Counted from the stretch's first letter, positions 1 through 22,922 are shown. The stretch is 64,000 bases of DNA from a bacterium (GCA_031385045.1 JANNBC010000009.1:1-64000); one strand, 5' to 3'. Translations and numbers: made by a program. Notes: generated from the letters alone by a model not told the origin.

Positions 1-1
1 C

Positions 2-382
2 CTTTCCAATCATTTTATTTAAGTTTTTAACAGCTAAGTGGGTTCCTTTTCCAATACGACAAGAATAGGAGTGAAAAAATAACTTTGGCTCGAAGATTAA
101 CGCCAATTGATTATAAACACTTTGGTGGACTACGCGATCTCGTACATTTGCTTTCCGAATATGACGAACCTTAGGATCGTTAATAAAAAAAGAATGATAT
201 GTACCATGTTCATAAATTTCAGTCTTTAGATCATGATTTAAATCAAAAATATTCCTTTCAAGATTTCGCTCAAAAGCCTGAACGTCATAACGATCCCGCT
301 TACCTTGTCGAAATTGCTCCCAAGATGCGAACAAGCTTTCTATTGAAATTATTTTCTGGAAAAGACTGTCAGGTTCTTTCAT
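2..382 (-). CDS. DGR reverse transcriptase, N-terminal part (runs off the left edge)
   Basis: Manual translation from ATG at 382: MKEPDSLFQKIISIESLFASWEQFRQGKRDRYDVQAFERNLERNIFDL...YHSFFINDPKVRHIRKANVRDRVVHQSVYNQLALIFEPKLFFHSYSCRIGKGTHLAV. Contains RT N-terminal motifs (DPKxRxI, RDRVVH, SYSCRxGKGTH). Adjacent to avd and TR. Catalytic YxDD lies outside the window. Confidence 0.93.
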   Translation of the reverse strand, partial: MKEPDSLFQKIISIESLFASWEQFRQGKRDRYDVQAFERNLERNIFDLNHDLKTEIYEHGTYHSFFINDPKVRHIRKANVRDRVVHQSVYNQLALIFEPKLFFHSYSCRIGKGTHLAVKNLNKMIGK

Positions 383-397
383 CAGATAAGGAATAAC

Positions 398-763
398 ATG
401 AAAACACTAGAAGTCCCAATAATTTTTAAAACTTATGAGCTATATAAAAGCTTACAAGGATATCAAAAGAATATTCCAAAATCAGAGCGATATACTATCT
501 GGCAAAAAATTCAGACCTGCAACTTAGATACTCTGGAATTACTGATTCGAGTTGGATACCTAACTCCTATCGAAAAATTATCAACACTAATTAAGGTAAG
601 TGCAAATGTGGATCTATTAAGAATTCTTTTGCGCTTGACTTATGAAACTAAGGTAATTCCTAGTAAGAATTATCTGGAATACCAAACTATATTAGATGAG
701 ATTGGCAGAATGCTTGGAGGCTGGATAAAAAATCTTAGGTTAAACTTAGCAGAAAGAAAATAA
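398..763 (+). CDS. avd: DGR accessory variability determinant Avd (four-helix bundle)
   Basis: 121 aa with PKSERYT and C-terminal EIGRMLGGW motifs typical of Avd; AAGGA SD upstream; located between RT and TR. Confidence 0.9.
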   Translation: MKTLEVPIIFKTYELYKSLQGYQKNIPKSERYTIWQKIQTCNLDTLELLIRVGYLTPIEKLSTLIKVSANVDLLRILLRLTYETKVIPSKNYLEYQTILDEIGRMLGGWIKNLRLNLAERK

Positions 764-779
764 AAAAGGAGACAGAAGT

Positions 780-886
780 TCCGAGAAACGCCAAGCCCGA
801 CATTGTCATTACAATTTTCAGGCGCGTAATCGTTCGCGTTAGCCTTGTCATTGTAGTTGTCGCCAACCACCAAGCGCGGGGACGAG
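780..886 (-). ncRNA. DGR template repeat (TR)
   Basis: Ungapped 107-bp match to 1256-1362 with 13 mismatches, all at T on + (A on the coding strand); rich in AAC/AAT codons. Confidence 0.95.
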
Positions 887-1156
887 AATGCTAGCATTAT
901 TTTGCCTGTCTCCTTTTTATCTCCACCATCAAGAGATCCCTCCCCAGATTGTATTTTATTCGGAGGCTTACACCTCACTAGAGTCAGACAAGAATTTCTG
1001 TCTCCGTAAAGACCTGCACGCTAAGAAAATTTGTAACTTTCTTAATTCAGGCAGTGTTCTAAACGAACCACTCTATGAAAGAAACCCTTAAGCATCTTTA
1101 CATTATAGAGCAGAATAACCTTATCTTAAGAATTTGAGATCTCCAAGTAAAATCTG

Positions 1157-1186
1157 CTATTTTTTGGGGCATCCCCCAAAAAATAG
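1157..1186. other. Hairpin/cruciform downstream of VR (candidate DGR target-recognition element)
   Basis: Perfect 13-bp stem CTATTTTTTGGGG / CCCCAAAAAATAG with 4-nt loop, 58 bp past the target stop codon. Confidence 0.7.
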
Positions 1187-1244
1187 AAACCAAGAACCAA
1201 AATTCAATTTTCCAAGTTAGATCAAAGTTCCAAGTACCAAGTAC

Positions 1245-2057
1245 CTATTTAGAAATCCGAGAAACGCCAAGCCCGACAAGGTCATTACAACCGTCAGGCG
1301 CGTAAGCGAACGCGTAAGCCTTGACATCGTAGAAGTCGCCAACCACCAAGCGCGGGGACGAGCCACGTGCCCAAGGAACTTTAAAGTACGAGTCTTGTCT
1401 ACCAGACTCAAGTCTCTTTAATGCTACAGCCATGTACTGCTCAGCAGGATTACCCGCTTCAAAATCTTCTGGGATTTTTGTAATGGCAGCATCTCTAGAA
1501 ATTCCAGTAGTATCTGGTAATACTTCTCTTAACATCAGGACGAATCGATCCCCTGCTCGACTACTTCCGATTTGCTGTGAATACGAATCAAGATAGGCAA
1601 CATTAGCAAGCTTTTGCTCAGTTGCTTCAGCATTTGCTTTGCCACCAAACTCATGTGCTGAATAATCTCCTGGAATTGGAACTATTGCTACTAAGTTACG
1701 TAGCTCGGGAGTAAGACTTTCTACAAACTTCAGATCATCTACGCTTAGTAGTGTTTTTGGATTGAAGGGTCGACCAATTACTTGCTCGCAAACATTGGCA
1801 GCAATCACATCTACCCCTAAAGATTGTAGTTTAGTAACTATTTCTGCGTCTGGTTTATGACCTACTATTTCTTTTGCTACAACAGGTTCTTCTTGTTGTT
1901 GCTCTTTAGCTACAGGAACTAAGGCGGCGAGGCCAAGAACGATTTGTTTTACTTCATCAGTTGGACGACCTAAAAGTGCATTCACGGTTGCATCGGCATT
2001 CGGACCCCTTAACTCTCTAGCCAAATCCGCTGATGATAATTCCTGTACTGCGCCCAT
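1245..2057 (-). CDS. DGR target protein with C-terminal VR (probable C-type-lectin-like display fold)
   Basis: ORF track 1245..2069 uses a TTG start; ATG at 2057 gives 270 aa. VR occupies the last ~38 codons and ends VGLGVSR, like the GFR-type terminal strand of CLec-fold targets. Fold is inferred. Confidence 0.88.
   Translation of the reverse strand: MGAVQELSSADLARELRGPNADATVNALLGRPTDEVKQIVLGLAALVPVAKEQQQEEPVVAKEIVGHKPDAEIVTKLQSLGVDVIAANVCEQVIGRPFNPKTLLSVDDLKFVESLTPELRNLVAIVPIPGDYSAHEFGGKANAEATEQKLANVAYLDSYSQQIGSSRAGDRFVLMLREVLPDTTGISRDAAITKIPEDFEAGNPAEQYMAVALKRLESGRQDSYFKVPWARGSSPRLVVGDFYDVKAYAFAYAPDGCNDLVGLGVSRISK
1256..1362 (-). repeat. DGR variable repeat (VR) at the 3' end of the target gene
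   Basis: Adenine-only substitutions relative to TR 780-886; encodes SSPRLVVGDFYDVKAYAFAYAPDGCNDLVGLGVSR. Confidence 0.95.
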
Positions 2058-2110
2058 CTTAATTCTCAAAAAATAAAAATCTTTAATAATCTAACACGAA
2101 TAACGGCTTA

Positions 2111-2138
2111 CTCAAGATGTTATGCATAACTACTTGAG
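2111..2138. promoter_or_regulatory. 28-bp near-perfect palindrome upstream of the DGR target gene (candidate operator)
   Basis: CTCAAG-AT-GTTATGCATAAC-TA-CTTGAG; overlaps a possible -35 (TTGAGT) on the minus strand. Confidence 0.45.
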
Positions 2139-2577
2139 AATGATAACTAAATTTTTTCTTGGGGAAGTGATTTTGGTGTATAAAAAGGATAGCTTTGGTC
2201 ATAAAGATTCATTTATGATAAAGCCACTAAATAAGAACTTATAATAAAATTGAGTAGTTAAGGATTAAATAGGATAAGCTCGGTTTAAAACGCTACATAA
2301 GATTTTCTGAATAAGAGTGGTTAAAAAAACATTTAATACCTCTCAATCGAAACCCTCTTCCCACTATTCTGCTTATACCCATCAAGAACATGCTTCATTC
2401 TATTTTGTGAAATACTAGCTCCAGTATTTAATTGCATTAGGTAATTACCATGAGCTGTGTTGTATGTTGCAAACTGGGCATTTTTTATTAGAAAACAAAC
2501 AAAAACCAAGTTACAGTTTATATTTTCTGTATAATCATTACTTCTTAAACTAAACAATAAATTAGTGTAACGAAAAA

Positions 2578-3504
2578 TTATAGTCCCAAAACTGCCCTCA
2601 AGCTTTCTAGGAGTGCCGCATGTTTCTTCTTATCCATTTTAGAAATATTAGCTAACTTCCACTGAATCGCAGGAAGTTTTTCAATTCCATTAATCTTTAT
2701 TAAGTTCCAATTAGGTTTACCCATTTTGATTGAAAGTAAAAAATTTCGCTCCTCTAAACTTAGCTCCATATTAATTTTACTGATAAGCTTTTCTCTAACT
2801 TCTTCTAACTCTTCACAGGTAACATTCTCCTCCGTCATGCCTTTAAACTGTGCATCAAATAACTTTCTGATATCTTGGAGTCTTGGCCTTAACAACTCTT
2901 GAATTGGGCGACCATGACCAGCTAAATAAACTACAAAAGCAGAACGAATCTGATCTGTTAATCCATACTTGTTAAACATCTCTTTTACATCAAATAAGTC
3001 CCTTGGATGTTGCCTATCTAATGCGGCACAAATCTTTCCCCCATAAACATCTGGAATAGACATAACTTTTGCTTCAAATTGAAGTCCATATTCTTTAACT
3101 ACTGCATCTGAAACCATTCTATTTTCTGACGGAAAAAGCTCTCCTCTAATTATTAAGTTTGGTTCAATTTTGACCAGAGCTTTTTCAGTTGAAACAAAAA
3201 GTTTAGAAGCATCTGAATTAGGTCTATCTGATCTGATTTTTATCTTTGGGTATCTACCTTTTAAATCTTTTGTAATATCTTTGGAAATATTTAGAAGTGC
3301 CTGACTAATCCCCTCTAGGGATTTTCCTCGGGTTTGTATTGGAAGATAAGTTAAATCGATATCCACAGATAATCTTGGAATTTTATGACTTAGGAAAAGA
3401 TTAATTGCCGTGCCACCCTTGAGGGCAAAGCATGATTGCCTAGCAACTATTGGCATAATTTCAAGGAGAAGCTTTACTTGTTCTAAATAAGAATTATTAA
3501 ACAT
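2578..3504 (-). CDS. abiEii: AbiEii-family nucleotidyltransferase toxin (type IV TA / abortive infection)
   Basis: FALKGGTAINLF...PRLSVDIDL and GKICAALDRQHPRDLFD motifs. Confidence 0.92.
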   Translation of the reverse strand: MFNNSYLEQVKLLLEIMPIVARQSCFALKGGTAINLFLSHKIPRLSVDIDLTYLPIQTRGKSLEGISQALLNISKDITKDLKGRYPKIKIRSDRPNSDASKLFVSTEKALVKIEPNLIIRGELFPSENRMVSDAVVKEYGLQFEAKVMSIPDVYGGKICAALDRQHPRDLFDVKEMFNKYGLTDQIRSAFVVYLAGHGRPIQELLRPRLQDIRKLFDAQFKGMTEENVTCEELEEVREKLISKINMELSLEERNFLLSIKMGKPNWNLIKINGIEKLPAIQWKLANISKMDKKKHAALLESLRAVLGL

Positions 3505-3509
3505 AATAT

Positions 3510-4259
3510 TTAAAGAAAATCATCATTTGATTTTACAGTTATTTTATATTTTGAGTTTGTATTACCACCACGATCTATGACCCTATTTCCCTGCCCAAAA
3601 TCTATTCTACTCAAATCTAATTTTCGAACCCAAGGATAGTTTAATTCCTCAGCTTTAACCATAAATAGTCTTTTGACTTTGATTGACTGACAATCTTCTA
3701 GAAGTTTTTGGATTACTTCATACCGAAGCGTTTGTAAGCCTTGAAACAAATATCCAGCATCAACAAATGAATCATGCTTAGGCACTAAGTATAATTGCTC
3801 AAAGAGAGCTCTTTCTCTAGAAGATATTTTTAATACTAAATTATCTGCTTTGTGATTTACTATTCCAAGATCTGATGAAAATAATTTTGTACTAAAATAT
3901 TTTATTTGAACTCCCCAGTCATAAGACTTAAACCACCTAGGTAATCTTAATTTTTCTTCACCAAAAAGCAGTAACTGCTCTTCTTTTCTTAAAAAATGAG
4001 ATACTCCATATAACTTAAGGGCACTACTAGCTCCGATATGAACTTCAAGGTTTAATTGTTTCTGGATAGCATTTAAACCTCCCTGCCAACTAAAGGAATC
4101 GCCTTTTCTAGCTACAGCACCATTACCCACTTCTACTATCCAGTTATTTTTCTTATACTGTGCTAATAATGCAGGGCTATAACCAAGCTTACTTAAATAA
4201 GAGCTTGTATAGACGACTCCACTCTCCCAGTTTGTTAAAAGTTTATTTAATTTAGTCAT
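3510..4259 (-). CDS. abiEi: AbiEi-family antitoxin / transcriptional regulator
   Basis: 249 aa, 5 bp upstream of abiEii; N-terminal wHTH-like region, SSRERALFE and CQSIKVKRLF motifs. Confidence 0.88.
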   Translation of the reverse strand: MTKLNKLLTNWESGVVYTSSYLSKLGYSPALLAQYKKNNWIVEVGNGAVARKGDSFSWQGGLNAIQKQLNLEVHIGASSALKLYGVSHFLRKEEQLLLFGEEKLRLPRWFKSYDWGVQIKYFSTKLFSSDLGIVNHKADNLVLKISSRERALFEQLYLVPKHDSFVDAGYLFQGLQTLRYEVIQKLLEDCQSIKVKRLFMVKAEELNYPWVRKLDLSRIDFGQGNRVIDRGGNTNSKYKITVKSNDDFL

Positions 4260-4410: not shown

Positions 4411-4632
4411 TTACTTGTTCTTACTATCCACCCACTCAAAAAATGCCTGCTCATCAATTAAAACTCTTCTACCAACTCGCTTTATTACTTCCTTAAATCC
4501 ATTCTGCTCAGCATAAAAAATCAAATGGCGAAGCCCCCCTATTGGTGGCCACTCGTGATGCTTATTCCAATTAACAATTGGTATTAACTTTCTTTCCTTC
4601 TTCTCACTTTGATTGCTCATAAAAACTCCCAA
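4411..4632 (-). CDS. Small DNA-binding protein, excisionase/AlpA-like
   Basis: WPPIGGLRHLIF...IKRVGRRVLIDEQAFFEWV resembles the wing motif of Xis-like proteins; lies in an integrase island. Confidence 0.65.
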   Translation of the reverse strand: MGVFMSNQSEKKERKLIPIVNWNKHHEWPPIGGLRHLIFYAEQNGFKEVIKRVGRRVLIDEQAFFEWVDSKNK

Positions 4633-5863: not shown

Positions 5864-6292
5864 GTGTCAAACCATTGGGAAAGATCAAGAGAGCAAAAGC
5901 TAGAATACTCCAGAAGGTGTCCAGAAAAAACAGAACTGTACAGAGTTACTTACCACAATCATGAATTTCTAGAAGAATTCTGGGAACAAAGATTCCAACA
6001 AAAGTACGGTAGCTTCCGCTTTGTAGTAAAAGAAACTCTGGAAAAGTATCTAAGCTGTGGCATTCTGGCACATGGCGTAGCCAGAGCGAGTTGCCCAGAT
6101 TGCAATCATTCTAGGCTGATTGCTTTTAGCTGTAAGTGCCGAGGATTTTGTCCTAGCTGTGGAACTAAAAGATCTTTAATCTTTGCTGAAACTCTTCATA
6201 ATTCTATTCTATCTTATAAAACGCGCGGCTACCCCCCGTATATAACTATGACAAAAGGTTTTCCTTCCCTTAGTGACATACTTGAAATTTAA
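5864..6292 (+). pseudogene. IS91-family transposase zinc-binding domain, truncated
   Basis: YLSCGILAHGVARASCPDCNHSRLIAFSCKCRGFCPSCGTKR motif; ORF ends before any HUH/Y2 catalytic domain. Confidence 0.82.
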
Positions 6293-6369
6293 AATTAGAT
6301 ATTCCTTAATCGAATTTTTGTTGGCGGAGTTCTGGGTGGCACAAGAAAAACAAAAAAGGGATAGCCCAC

Positions 6370-6474
6370 TATGACAATTTATGTCATAATCATGAACTTT
6401 GTCACAAAGGAAATGCTATAAATCTGTGTTATTAGTATTTAATTATTAATAATTTAATTGGCATACAAATTGCA
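6370..6474 (+). promoter_or_regulatory. sigma54 promoter with upstream activator palindrome for the pilin gene
   Basis: TGGCATACAAATTGCA (GG-N10-GC) at 6459-6474; TATGACA-N5-TGTCATA palindrome at 6370-6388; AT-rich spacer between them. Confidence 0.72.
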
Positions 6475-6509
6475 CTAATCCATTCGGATATATTTTTAAT
6501 GACTCTATT

Positions 6510-6977
6510 ATGTTAAACTCAAAAGCCTTTACACTAGTTGAATTACTCGTTGTTGTAGCAATTATTGGTATACTCGCTGCTGTTGCTATCCCAGGTTATA
6601 GTAGCTACAAGCAAAATGCTAGGGTAGCATCTGTTGTCAGTGACTTGAAAAACATCCATTCTGCCCTTGAAGCTTACAGAACAGAAAGCAACTCCTATCC
6701 AGATGATGTCGCTGGTGGCTCTACTCCTCCTGGATTGGCTCCGTTTTTAAAAAGTGACTTTTTTACTTCAGATACTCCAGTTGGTGGAAGATATGATTAC
6801 AACGCACAACCTGTGTGGGGAGAAGTCAGTATTAGAATTGAAAATGCAACTTATATCACTGACGATGCGGGTTGGGAGAAAGTCGATGGTGTACTTGATG
6901 ATGGTGATTTAGGTGGAGGAAAATTTAGAAATATCGCAGATGGTAAAGCTTACGTAGTAAGTGAAGATATCTATTAA
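6510..6977 (+). CDS. Type IV pilin / pseudopilin-like protein
   Basis: KAFTLVELLVVVAIIGILAAVAIP prepilin N-terminal motif. Confidence 0.9.
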   Translation: MLNSKAFTLVELLVVVAIIGILAAVAIPGYSSYKQNARVASVVSDLKNIHSALEAYRTESNSYPDDVAGGSTPPGLAPFLKSDFFTSDTPVGGRYDYNAQPVWGEVSIRIENATYITDDAGWEKVDGVLDDGDLGGGKFRNIADGKAYVVSEDIY

Positions 6978-7383: not shown

Positions 7384-8481
7384 TTACCTCAAAAACCTAT
7401 CATGCATCCGCATCAACGCATTGTCAGCATGACCCTCAGACATATGACTATACCTCTTAACCATGGCTAAGGTCTTATGTCCTAAAACTTCGGCAATCTC
7501 AGCAATAGAAGATCCACTCATTAGTAAATAAGAAGCTGTTGTGTGTCGTAAATCATGAAATCTGAAATCTTCTATTTCAGCAATTTTTAGAGCATTTTCC
7601 CAAGCTGTTTTAATACTAGCTGGCTTATGCTGATCTTGAGAAGGAAAAACAAAGTTAGAATTAATATTTCTTAACTTAGAATGTTCCAAAAGTAAGCTAT
7701 GAACATCAGGCACTATTCTAATTGATCTTTGTTCCCCATTTTTAGATTCACGAATTAGAAGTCTTCCAGTTATAAGGTCAACATCTTGCCAAGTTAAGCC
7801 TAATATTTCCCCCTTCCTCATACCTGTAGATAAGGCAATTCTTACAATCAGACTTAAATATGGACTGGCTGATTCAGTACAAGCTTTTAGAAGTCGCACT
7901 TTTTCATCAGCTGTTAAATATCTTACTCTTCCCCTTGGTTCTTTAAGTTTAGAAACATTTTTTACAGGGTTAAATTCAATCCAGCCCCACTCCTTTAAGG
8001 CAATTGTAAATAAATGAGAAATGGTAGCAAGGTATCTGTTAACTCTAGCTTTACTAAAGGTTTCTGGCTCAATAATCTCTTTTGTCTTAGATTGAAGTCG
8101 TTTGTTAATTTTCTTCTTAGCTTTGGCTAATAGATCTCTTTTTTCGGTAATAAGGGCTGGTGTAATATCTGCAATAAACCGATGTCCGATTTCGTTACCC
8201 CACCATCTAAGAATTGCTTTTTTATTTTCGAAGTTCTTTTGGGATATGATGTTTGGATCCTCAATGTAACGCTCAATAGCTTCACTAACAGTTTTTCTCT
8301 TACCTTCTTTAGTTCCAAAAAATCTATTTTCTCTTAATTCAGTTTCAGTCTTTTGAATCCACTTAACAGCATCAGTTCTTCTTTCGAAAGTTAAAGACTG
8401 TGGCTCCTGCCCTTTAAGTCTTACCTGAGCACGATAAACAATAGATCCATCTGACCTTGTTCGTTTGGTAATTGAAGCCAT
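7384..8481 (-). CDS. int: Tyrosine recombinase / phage-type integrase
   Basis: STGMRKGEILGL (R), FRFHDLRHT (HxxR), LGHKTLAMVKRYSH (H, Y); N-terminal arm-binding-like region; GGAGG SD; beside a tRNA 3' end. Confidence 0.95.
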   Translation of the reverse strand: MASITKRTRSDGSIVYRAQVRLKGQEPQSLTFERRTDAVKWIQKTETELRENRFFGTKEGKRKTVSEAIERYIEDPNIISQKNFENKKAILRWWGNEIGHRFIADITPALITEKRDLLAKAKKKINKRLQSKTKEIIEPETFSKARVNRYLATISHLFTIALKEWGWIEFNPVKNVSKLKEPRGRVRYLTADEKVRLLKACTESASPYLSLIVRIALSTGMRKGEILGLTWQDVDLITGRLLIRESKNGEQRSIRIVPDVHSLLLEHSKLRNINSNFVFPSQDQHKPASIKTAWENALKIAEIEDFRFHDLRHTTASYLLMSGSSIAEIAEVLGHKTLAMVKRYSHMSEGHADNALMRMHDRFLR

Positions 8482-8624
8482 GTATTTAATCCTCCATTTA
8501 AGACAGATTTAGCCTACAATATGACTAAAAATGTTTCAATAGGAGATTCAATCCCAAGTGTCTAAGGCTTAACTTATTAATAATATTAAGAATACCACTG
8601 TGCCATTTTGCATGGTGCAATCTG

Positions 8625-8759
8625 GGCACACTCTCGGCACACTAAAGGTGCATTTTTGTCATTTTAGTTAGTAATAACTATCGTTTTTTAACTTTGAAAG
8701 TTTGTTATTAATTGTGCCTGATGGTGATTTTTTGTGCTGAATTGTGCCGAGAGTGTGCC
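8625..8759. repeat. 17-bp perfect inverted repeat (candidate integrase arm-type sites)
   Basis: GGCACACTCTCGGCACA (8625-8641) / TGTGCCGAGAGTGTGCC (8743-8759); further TGTGCC/T hexamers at 8599, 8713 and 8733. Confidence 0.7.
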
Positions 8760-8844
8760 AAGGATGATTTTTTGAGAGCAACTACTAGCTCAGTCCTTAT
8801 TCTCAAAGGACTATATCTTATTGATTTTAAAGGAGAAAAAGAAA

Positions 8845-8928
8845 TGCGAGAGGCGGGAATCGAACCCGCACGAGGTTACCCTCACAGGATTTTAAGTCCT
8901 GTGTGTCTACCAGTTCCACCACTATCGC
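8845..8928 (-). tRNA. tRNA-Leu (TAA)
   Basis: GCGATAGTGGTGGAACTGGTAGACAC-ACAGGAC-TTAAAA-TCCTGT...GGGTTCGATTCCC...TCGCA cloverleaf with long variable arm; CCA not encoded. Confidence 0.95.
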
Positions 8929-9011
8929 ATAGTTGTTAGTTTTCAAAGTATTGAAAACTGAGGGTAATTATTAAATTATCTTGAGATAAATGTCAAAAAC
9001 AAGGGGTTAAT

Positions 9012-18631: not shown

Positions 18632-18683
18632 TACTACTGTTCAAACTTAAAAGCTTAATTATAGCTATTTACTAATCCTCACC

Positions 18684-18836
18684 TCTACCTTCGCTTCCAC
18701 CTTCGCTAAAGCTACGGCGGACGAGAAAGCTACGGTGAATGGAGTTTAGTTAGGGAGTGTCCAAACAAACCACTACCTGCTACCAATCCGCCTCCACCTT
18801 CGCTAAAGCTACGGCGGACAAGAAGGCTACGACGGA
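18684..18836. repeat. Two nested REP-like palindromic repeats
   Basis: TCCACCTTCGCTAAAGCTACGGCGGACRAG units at 18696-18725 and 18793-18822, each flanked by half-units. Confidence 0.8.
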
Positions 18837-18867
18837 TGGTTATTTAATTAGGCTTGTCCAAGCCTAA

Positions 18868-19389
18868 TTAAATATCCACATCTTCAAATAGATCTGGGTT
18901 TTCCATGAGAGCAGCTTCGGCCTCAGCGAAAACCATCTCCCAGACTCGCTTATCCCAAATCCTAAAGCCATGAATAGAGGAAGTAAACGTTGCTTCCTCT
19001 TCAATCCCTGCATAAACTTTTAAATGCTTTGGAATTAAAATCCTACCTGCGGCATCAATCCGACACTCGGCTGCGCGACTAAGATAAAAGTTCTCTAACT
19101 TTTGTAGTTTCGCACTAAAACGACTTTTTTCTCGTAAACGTTGCTCAAATTTCTCCCAATCGCAAAGAGCAAATCCCTCTAAGCATCTAGCTCCATCACT
19201 AATATAGTTAGTTAGGACAATTTGAGTTTGAGTTTTTTCAGTTAGAACCCGACGAAAATCGGCAGGAAGGCTGATCCTTCCCTTATTATCAATTGAATTT
19301 ACGAAATTACCGCGAAAAGAAAGCGAGGAGCTAAACCCCTCACCATCTTCTCTATCAAAACCTTTTGATGAAACCTGATCATTTTTCAT
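18868..19389 (-). CDS. mraZ: Transcriptional regulator MraZ
   Basis: IDNKGRISLP and IDAAGRILIP duplicated motifs; first gene of the dcw cluster. Confidence 0.95.
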   Translation of the reverse strand: MKNDQVSSKGFDREDGEGFSSSLSFRGNFVNSIDNKGRISLPADFRRVLTEKTQTQIVLTNYISDGARCLEGFALCDWEKFEQRLREKSRFSAKLQKLENFYLSRAAECRIDAAGRILIPKHLKVYAGIEEEATFTSSIHGFRIWDKRVWEMVFAEAEAALMENPDLFEDVDI

Positions 19390-19518
19390 ACGGAGGTATT
19401 AAATACTACATGACCTTCGTTGAGACATACTGCCTTGAATACGACATCATCTCTCAACAAAGGAGAACTTATTAACCCTACTAATTGAGTGGGGTTAGAA
19501 ACAAATGTGAGCTGCCAT

Positions 19519-19600
19519 CCTACCTTCGCTTCCACCTTCGCTTCCACCTTCGCTTCCACCTTCGCTAAAGCTACGGTGGACAAGAAAGCTCCGGTGGGTC
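19519..19600. repeat. Nested REP-like repeat with four tandem 12-bp left halves
   Basis: (TCCACCTTCGCT)x4 (first copy variant) followed by AAAGCTACGGTGGACAAG and AAAGCTCCGGTGG. Confidence 0.8.
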
Positions 19601-19766
19601 AAATATTTCGTGTTTGAAAACAGTTTCCCGCCTCCCATAACTTTGGGAGACGAGAATAAAACCTTAAGAAAACCTGGGTCAGCAATAACCTCTCAAAACA
19701 AGCTAAAAAACTAGTTATATTGAAAGCTTATCCTGTTCGAAAGCCTATTAAGCTATCAGCTTAACT

Positions 19767-22602: not shown

Positions 22603-22738
22603 TGTGTGCCTTTTGTATACAAATTAGAATGATTGAAATTAATCATTTAGGATCAGTGAATCGAAGATTACGGAAAGATGTTGGATTTTTTAGAAATTTA
22701 TTTGAAAAAAACTTGGAATATAGGGAAGTTTTACTTAT

Positions 22739-22922
22739 AGCAAAACGATTCGGCTTTGTCCTCCCTGCGGGTAAGGGGTTCGAATCCCGCAAAGAACTTA
22801 TAAATATATATGCGACCAGAGGGAGGTTTTGCTTCCAGCAAAACTATTCGGCGTTGTCTTCCCTGCGGGTAAGGGGTTCGAATCCCGCAAAGAACTTATA
22901 AATATATATGCGACCAGAGGGA
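22739..22922. repeat. 98-bp-period direct repeat overlapping the tRNA-Arg 3' end
   Basis: 22739-22824 vs 22837-22922: 86 bp with 3 mismatches; includes 14 bp of the tRNA 3' end. Confidence 0.9.

Follow-up and report, generated by a model that had tools for sequence, protein, structure and literature searches.

The left end of a 64,000-nt stretch of bacterial DNA (GCA_031385045.1, JANNBC010000009.1:1-64000; from now on referred to as the window) encodes a diversity-generating retroelement (DGR) consisting of a reverse transcriptase (RT), avd as an accessory gene, a template repeat (TR) and a variable repeat (VR) at the end of a target gene. The window starts at the contig end, and the RT gene runs across it. 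Between target gene and TR lies a structured RNA leader, and the VR is directly followed by a periodic array of short YTYGR motifs. The components of the element outside the leader are:

2–382, minus strand: N-terminus of the DGR RT (127 aa), running off the contig end and continuing in contig G000:C40 (RT-a) or C31 (RT-b)
398–763, plus strand: avd, inverted, head to head with the RT start with 15 bp between
780–886, minus strand: TR, 107 nt, base 817 probably C
1157–1186, no strand assigned: perfect 13-bp DNA hairpin, 69 nt after the VR
1186–1255, minus strand: YTYGR array, six copies with a 7–8-nt period, directly after the VR; candidate target-recognition signal
1256–1362, minus strand: variable repeat VR1, target residues 233–268
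1245–2057, minus strand: target gene TP1 (270 aa), with a short helical N-terminus, a low-confidence linker and a C-type-lectin-like domain (all predicted)

The identity of the locus as a DGR is confirmed. The gap-free 107-nt alignment of TR and VR1 proposed in a sequence-only reading of the window was reproduced together with its translations, and all mismatches as assembled fall on minus-strand TR adenines (13 of 13: 7 A>T, 3 A>G, 3 A>C; the TR contains 25 A), for which random expectation gives p = 2.9e-10. Regarding an IMH/IMH* pair, TR and VR are identical through their last base and divergent beyond. One of the 13 mismatches is probably not genuine. Contigs from four public runs were aligned to window 1–2400, one of them (X1) probably being the source run and hence not independent, and at 817 all three runs covering the position (X1, X2 and X5, from three studies) have G on the plus strand, that is, C in the TR. 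Both VRs also carry C at this place (TR base 70). The TR base at 817 is thus probably C and not A; Logan contigs pop bubbles, and this single copy may still carry A. With 817 corrected, the A-only pattern stands at most likely 12 mismatches (p = 1.1e-9), the nine changed residues, counted rightly as assembled, become eight once a GAA/GAC change drops out, and the 24 internal A within 15 codons, likewise confirmed as assembled, become 23. The theoretical space is then 4^23 = 7.0e13 nucleotide variants instead of 4^24, corresponding to 3.6e13 protein variants.

The RT that the gene track had missed was located at 2–382 as proposed, and its continuation was found on other contigs. Window 1–141 is repeated exactly at the start of C40 and at the end of C31, each followed by its own RT C-terminus, and in both possible continuations the RT is open through a YADD motif to the stop codon. 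The whole RT, split across contigs sharing the 141-bp exact overlap, is about 343 aa long and matches RVT_1 with 73 bits, while the intron, retron and DRT models of NCBIfam all stay under their cut-offs. A quick RT tree of 109 rows, leaving out a quarter of the same-strand avd rows as well as short and identical rows, separated 105 DGR-like rows from four other RTs (Shimodaira-Hasegawa-like approximate likelihood ratio test, SH-aLRT, 97; long branches), with the RT of the window among the DGR RTs. In the same tree RT-a and RT-b belong to a 23-row clade (SH-aLRT 99) with RTs from Bdellovibrionales/Bdellovibrionota and two Peribacteria RTs. A further RT at G000:C10:23104-23628 is unrelated (446-aa frame, 29% identity) and probably of group II intron type. 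In a related cassette (L037:6361-6985) the RT lies in two frames with TR, VR and leader intact.

An avd gene next to the TR had also been predicted correctly, but it is encoded by the plus strand and so runs opposite to target, TR and RT. It is recognized by both Pfam bAvd (69.6 bits, cut-off 40) and NF033474 (NCBIfam DivGenRetAVD; 83.8 bits, cut-off 80). A TR-(avd)-RT arrangement with a reversed avd is what defines architecture B3, and inverted avd was therefore dropped as a novelty. Avd orientation follows RT similarity across 178 loci, some of them near-duplicates: at RT identity of at least 43%, avd is inverted in 64 of 75 loci, was not found in 11 and is never on the same strand, whereas below 43% it is inverted in six, undetected in five and on the same strand in 92. 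Six rows without inverted avd are nested among inverted ones in the quick tree, on a long branch.

The genome has a size of 2.83 Mb at 94.9% completeness and 0.31% contamination, and RT matches of at least 40% identity over at least 170 residues were found in 8 of 40 relatives. The host is probably a member of the Bdellovibrionota, because the closest titled RT records come from Bdellovibrionales/Bdellovibrionota. It does not belong to the Patescibacteria or DPANN, the groups that define the DGR set of the candidate phyla radiation (CPR). According to the survey by Wu et al. [quoted passage not shown]

The Bordetella BPP-1 paradigm invoked in the sequence-only reading holds for the mutagenesis but not for the layout of the RNA. 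Only 16 nt, without a hairpin, separate the TR from the antisense avd stop, and across 39 B3 loci this distance has a median of 40 nt (range 1–85); these are the loci with a TR/VR pair, window included, those without a detected pair being left out. The structured RNA is instead found upstream of the TR, as a leader of ~200 nt that pairs with both TR flanks and shows strong covariation. Its elements, from 5' to 3', are:

1102–1129, minus strand: sigma-70-like promoter match TTAAGA-16-TATAAT before the leader (10/12, tied for best)
1012–1052, minus strand: leader 5' stem-loop, covarying; proposed Avd-binding equivalent
980–1005, minus strand: leader core, with the P1 arm at 1005–992 (proposed primer strand) and directly thereafter the P2 arm at 991–980
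924–978, minus strand: leader 3' part, with a short stem-loop (978–962), single-stranded conserved AATAAAATWCA (about 961–950) and a stem-loop (953–924)
902–913, minus strand: P2 partner strand just 5' of the TR; proposed cPRT-stop equivalent
762–781, minus strand: 3' tail of the TR RNA, with the P1 partner strand (781–768) and a U-tract, ending at the avd stop

In P1, the tail pairs with an arm that lies 190–350 nt upstream of the TR end in B3 loci, and in P2, the 12 nt right behind the P1 arm pair with the segment just 5' of the TR. Across 20 aligned loci, 94.7% of the P1 and P2 cells are paired and 15 of 25 pairs show two-sided changes, a value as high being reached in 0 of 500 shuffles; these loci were chosen for their anchor motif and are related, so that shuffle counts are not probabilities. 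P2 alone is 98.8% paired, and slid registers of the combined pairing give 43–56%. RNAalifold recovered P2, outer P1 and three stem-loops unaided, and a locus's own arms outscore foreign arms 88–90% of the time. Three other candidates in this region were discarded: a spacer within antisense avd, an open reading frame (ORF) across the TR (670–978) that belongs to no family, and a 13-bp stem between 919–904 and the tail as a conserved clamp, which is the P2 partner also matching the tail in this window. Rfam gave no match in window 1–2600, leader included, apart from one RT-7 score of 24 bits against a cut-off of 117.

In a blind pipeline, 33 of 39 B3 loci contained the anchor, compared with 7 of 66 controls with same-strand avd; P2 ranked among the top 5% of the null computed for it in 26 of 39 versus 0 of 66, and the A-rich motif was present in 28 of 39 versus 0 of 66. 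A covariance model of the leader core (R1) matched 40 of 51 held-out inverted-avd loci and none of 49 controls. Within the host's order, 7 of 41 genomes gave an R1 match, one of these being weak, and so did 28 of 151 genomes sampled from the phylum to which a Peribacteria record belongs. When 25 loci were fetched from this last whole-genome search, made with the RNA only, a TR was found to start -3 to +29 nt from the leader end in 24 of them, with mismatches almost all at A; 23 of the 25 have an inverted avd, 22 an RT and none a same-strand avd. Leader and TR are missing at two loci, L028:1060-1250 and L045 (in front of the avd stop), where a long target ORF whose end is VR-like leads straight to the TR tail and the avd stop; these are apparently cassettes collapsed by recombination between VR and TR. 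L034 is also without a TR at that place.

The region after the VR carries a second B3-associated feature. Within 70 nt after the VR, at least three YTYGR motifs occur in 37 of 39 B3 loci, compared with 2 of 66 controls. The mean is 4.8 motifs in B3, most commonly spaced 7–8 nt apart, compared to 0.9 in shuffled sequence and 0.4 after the TR. The array is strand-specific, starts at the stop codon and ends after about 70 nt, and was likewise seen in 22 of 24 independent loci from the RNA-only search. It also follows VRs located far from any leader (L049 second target, L027 and L071). VR1 and VR2, the repeat of a second target gene described below, are each followed by six copies, and the decayed VR of a third paralogue by one. 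Based on this distribution, the array is a candidate homing or target signal. 7-mer repeats occur beside genes for Avd-like four-helix-bundle proteins. The hairpin at 1157–1186 was rejected as a conserved signal, perfect hairpins of at least 8 bp after the VR being present in 5 of 39 B3 loci, and as a terminator, since a T-tract precedes the stem on both strands. Its loop differs by one base between the two cassettes of this genome (window 1173, G000:C3:130), and the 30-mer of cassette B is a perfect palindrome.

The genome encodes the element twice. Contig C3 starts with window 1044–1184 and holds a second target (TP2) and a third paralogue (TP3), and the RT C-termini on C40 and C31 are 86% identical. 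VR2, belonging to TP2, differs from the TR at five sites, all of them A, while the VR of TP3 has 16 A changes, 11 non-A changes and a 3-nt gap. Cassette A (window and C40) lies within a ~13-kb island that has a tRNA-Leu and an integrase at one end and a second copy of the tRNA 3' half at the other; one AbiE pair is present on either side. Cassette B has the order ftsA, TP3, hipA, TP2, core, RT-b, ftsZ. The relevant parts of the window are:

1–1690, no strand assigned: window part of a shared ~2-kb tract, near-identical in cassettes A and B, with 142–1043 assembled once for both
2578–4259, minus strand: AbiEi/AbiEii type IV toxin-antitoxin pair, island cargo adjoining the DGR
7384–8929, minus strand: tyrosine integrase (7384–8481) and tRNA-Leu (8844–8929), forming the left end of the island; the tRNA 3' half recurs at the end of C40

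Near-identity between cassettes A and B extends from about 1690 across the core and up to about C40:360; outside this tract they are 60–80% alike. Synonymous differences between TP1 and TP2 amount to 30/69 in the N-terminal half and 3/103 in the C-terminal half, and those between RT-a and RT-b to 5/67 and 43/110 in the two parts of the gene. This step in similarity (Fisher p 2e-11 toward the target and 2e-6 toward the RT) is sharp near 1690, and TP3 shows no such synonymous step. We infer that a ~2-kb tract was exchanged between old paralogues by conversion or recombinational replacement. Several DGRs per genome are found in about 10% of genomes (PMC5758913).

Two runs of one other study provide only indirect support for the recent activity suggested in the sequence-only reading. 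These runs (X2 and X3) yielded a contig over 1021–1382 with 17 differences in 362 nt, while other contigs of these runs have 1 difference in 1,010 nt and 0 in 929 nt; differences were compared as letter classes, at depths of 2–5. Twelve of the 17 start from non-T and five from T on the plus strand, close to the 12 non-T and 11 T sites expected of an independent VR, and at least one of the 17 cannot sit at a TR-A site. In X5, from a more distant relative, the VR contains a 3-nt insertion. The differences in X2 and X3 are no more than a hint of recent activity.

The BPP-1 DGR requires a 140-nt spacer (Sp) 3' of the TR (10.1101/2023.10.23.563531; PMC6182149), represented by Rfam RT-10 (PMC5737381), and its elements follow the order Sp3-33, Sp47-56, Sp59-70, Sp71-78, A80-A81 with the Thumb Ring, and Sp95-139 (10.1101/2023.10.23.563531). 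The leader described here resembles that arrangement: a pair of neighboring long-range duplexes holds the TR at its 3' end and just 5' of it, with one stem-loop ahead of the pair and, behind it, a short stem-loop, unpaired As and another stem-loop. Since the order of elements matches that of the BPP-1 Sp, the leader may be viewed as a circular permutation of it, with priming at 996–991. It differs from BPP-1 in that the whole block lies 5' instead of 3' of the TR, that the partner for the stop is non-coding and not formed by avd codons, and that no spacer joins TR RNA and RT; no Rfam match was obtained for it. In retron msr-msd RNAs, the primer strand lies 5' of the template and is paired with the RNA 3' end. 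The proposed primer strand of the leader would have the same geometry; here, however, DGR RT, Avd, TR and VR are present and there is no msd.

We hypothesize that the TR has a separate transcript of ~330 nt, which starts at about 1095 and ends in the U-tract near 762, and that the leader takes over, from the 5' side, the function of the Bordetella Sp RNA, the order of elements being the same. The 5' stem-loop would bind Avd, the P1 arm and the TR 3' end would form the template:primer duplex, and the P2 arm, paired just 5' of the TR, would represent the stop, followed by the short stem-loop, the unpaired A-rich strand and an RT-binding stem-loop. RT-Avd could then use as primer a 2'-OH located where the P1 arm has its inner end (996–991; best guess C992), with G782 as the first template base, and cDNA synthesis would copy the TR with errors at A and halt at P2. 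The cDNA would replace VRs marked by the YTYGR array, recombination between cassettes would keep TR, leader, avd and the lectin-like half of the target alike, and TP3, lacking the array, would have dropped out of targeting. As a whole, this account, comprising a B3 DGR present twice, a leader-first RNA, array-marked VRs and cassette recombination, appears probable to us.

Several points count against it. The roles of the leader elements are derived from order and geometry and not from sequence likeness to Sp, and the aligned loci were selected and related as described above. Pairing is more irregular in P1 than in P2 (90.9% for P1, which has a bulge in one subgroup), and the mean best P1 energy alone barely separates B3 loci from controls (-14.8 vs -13.5). 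The minimum-energy fold of the window pairs the tail with the P2 partner, the fold with P1 and P2 being 1.6 kcal/mol higher, and the P1/P2 pairing leaves no unpaired bases between the duplexes, whereas BPP-1 has two between its primer and stop duplexes. R1 missed 11 of the 51 held-out loci, the promoter match is weak (10 such sites found vs 7.3 expected), and the joins C55/C40 and C3/C31 are based on synteny, not on a spanning read.

The leader might be a real structured RNA that stabilizes or masks the TR RNA without priming, in which case cDNA synthesis would start from the 3' tail, a terminator hairpin or the antisense avd. Many B3 loci do have a hairpin between TR and avd stop, the lowest-energy fold of the window is without P1, and putative Avd-binding stem-loops were reported downstream of the TR in 207 of 278 DGRs, CPR included (10.1101/2023.10.23.563531). 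In that survey, however, just 40 nt upstream and 100 nt downstream of the TR were folded, which puts the leader out of reach. The downstream interval is short, here as in other B3 loci, and lacks a hairpin in the window, and adjacent P1 and P2 arms followed by a stem-loop and unpaired As reproduce the BPP-1 order. We consider a non-priming leader unlikely. It is possible, if doubtful, that the YTYGR array is no homing signal and instead serves transcription or protein binding where the target gene ends: it is strand-specific and begins at the stop codon. Yet it accompanies live VRs wherever these are placed, and just one copy remains behind the decayed VR of TP3, which is itself still an open gene.

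Similar considerations apply to the twin cassettes and to the state of the element. That the two cassettes reflect a two-strain assembly artefact or one recent duplication, instead of old paralogues kept alike by conversion, could be argued because the shared core was assembled once, no read spans a cassette, and the depths, which come from the probable source run, are means for each contig and do not give copy numbers. We regard this as very unlikely, given that the four unique flanks map to two distinct chromosomal places, that mean depth in X1 is 26.1 for the core contig but 11.9 for the unique flank and 11.4 and 8.6 for the two VRs, and that bin contamination is as low as stated above; moreover, a single duplication would not yield homologous flanks that differ this much with so sharp a step. 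An inactive relic preserving an old A-only pattern is in our view also an unlikely explanation. In its favor, VR2 differs from the corrected TR at only four sites, three of which share the base of VR1, and no variant positions were seen in reads, assembled contigs having been compared. Against this, every gene is open, neither VR1 nor VR2 has a non-A change while TP3 has 11 and a gap, and the VR contig of the near-identical strain carries its 17 differences in classes near the expectation for an independent VR. The B3 account with a leader-first RNA and recombining cassettes can be extended to the family: there is a slightly better than even chance that CPR-type B3 DGRs generally use a permuted stand-alone RNA, an upstream primer strand and a 7–8-nt array instead of a hairpin, the present case lying outside the CPR with two cassettes held on one template by conversion.

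The target gene had been assigned a TTG start at 2069; ATG 2057 is most likely the correct one, as all three paralogues begin with MGA. TP1 belongs to no Pfam family and has no membrane or signal stretch (hydropathy at most 1.55). Its relatives comprise two paralogues and, from a HMMER scan, three remote singletons; three word-index searches returned only the paralogues and one remote protein, and no homologue was found in 60 relatives. A first metagenome scan gave no match, and a shorter-fragment search for VR alleles found none. The model of residues 66–270 has a predicted local distance difference test (pLDDT) value of 85, and the best structural match has a Z-score of 6.5, with none at or above 8; TvpA (2y3c) was matched with Z 6.3 and a root-mean-square deviation of 3.7 over 138 residues, Mtd (1yu0) with Z 5.6 and TaqVP (5vf4) with Z 4.4. 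The match list is dominated by what we take to be C-type-lectin/FGE-fold chains. Foldseek at E 0.001 returned nothing for the full-length model against PDB or for the domain model against viral models, and matches in the Atlas were confined to unnamed clusters (of the three listed, two were mostly Minisyncoccota), with nothing for residues 1–70. Like TvpA, Mtd and TaqVP, TP1 has a C-terminal VR and its predicted domain aligns with theirs, but at about 10% identity and without a Pfam family. TP1 can be read as a soluble lectin-fold binder, and the toxin-antitoxin neighbors hint at a defense setting, though islands collect such genes anyway. The targets of five related cassettes (L021, L022, L035, L037 and L040) have no Pfam family and no match to TP1; targets therefore seem to turn over faster than RT and leader.

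Further features were noted around the cassettes. A further copy of the tRNA-Leu 3' half at G000:C13:46124-46178 overlaps the end of C40 and could be either the continuation of the island flank or a second island. A small helix-turn-helix, excisionase-like ORF at 4411–4632 has an 89% identical decayed copy across the DGR from it, just after RT-a (G000:C40:939-1108). The island also contains a zinc-binding fragment of an IS91-type transposase and, in addition, a pilin-like gene that has an N-methylation motif (5864–6977). Elsewhere in the window, 18683–19623 contains an intergenic repeat family of 37–73 nt with another copy just after ftsA on C3, and 22722–22917 a 98-bp tandem duplication with a tRNA-like T-arm beside a tRNA-Arg. 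A very acidic, repetitive protein of 1,329 aa is encoded near cassette B (L003:2323-6312).

DGRs and the TR-(avd)-RT layout are already known, and the element is ordinary as a DGR. It shares gene order, inverted avd, A-only TR/VR changes and a C-terminal VR in a target without known domains with the B3 systems of Wu et al. (PMC5758913), whose available part does not describe an upstream leader or a periodic array. Within the literature searched, which ended short of supplements and Paul et al. 2017, no description of an upstream leader, its permutation, a periodic array or a Bdellovibrionota DGR was found, nor in the available parts of PMC12875486, PMC6602519, PMC8144416, PMC8867640, PMC8632793, PMC7159879 and 10.64898/2026.09.22.753630. 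CPR bacteria account for about 40% of all distinct DGRs (PMC8632793). The only worked-out DGR mechanism needs a downstream spacer, which is absent from the CPR layout. The leader offers a base-level, testable model for priming and stopping in CPR-type DGRs, and the array is a candidate for target finding in DGRs that mostly have no hairpin. For targeted mutagenesis tools, a self-contained RNA of ~330 nt that does not depend on the avd and RT genes would be a cleaner part as well.

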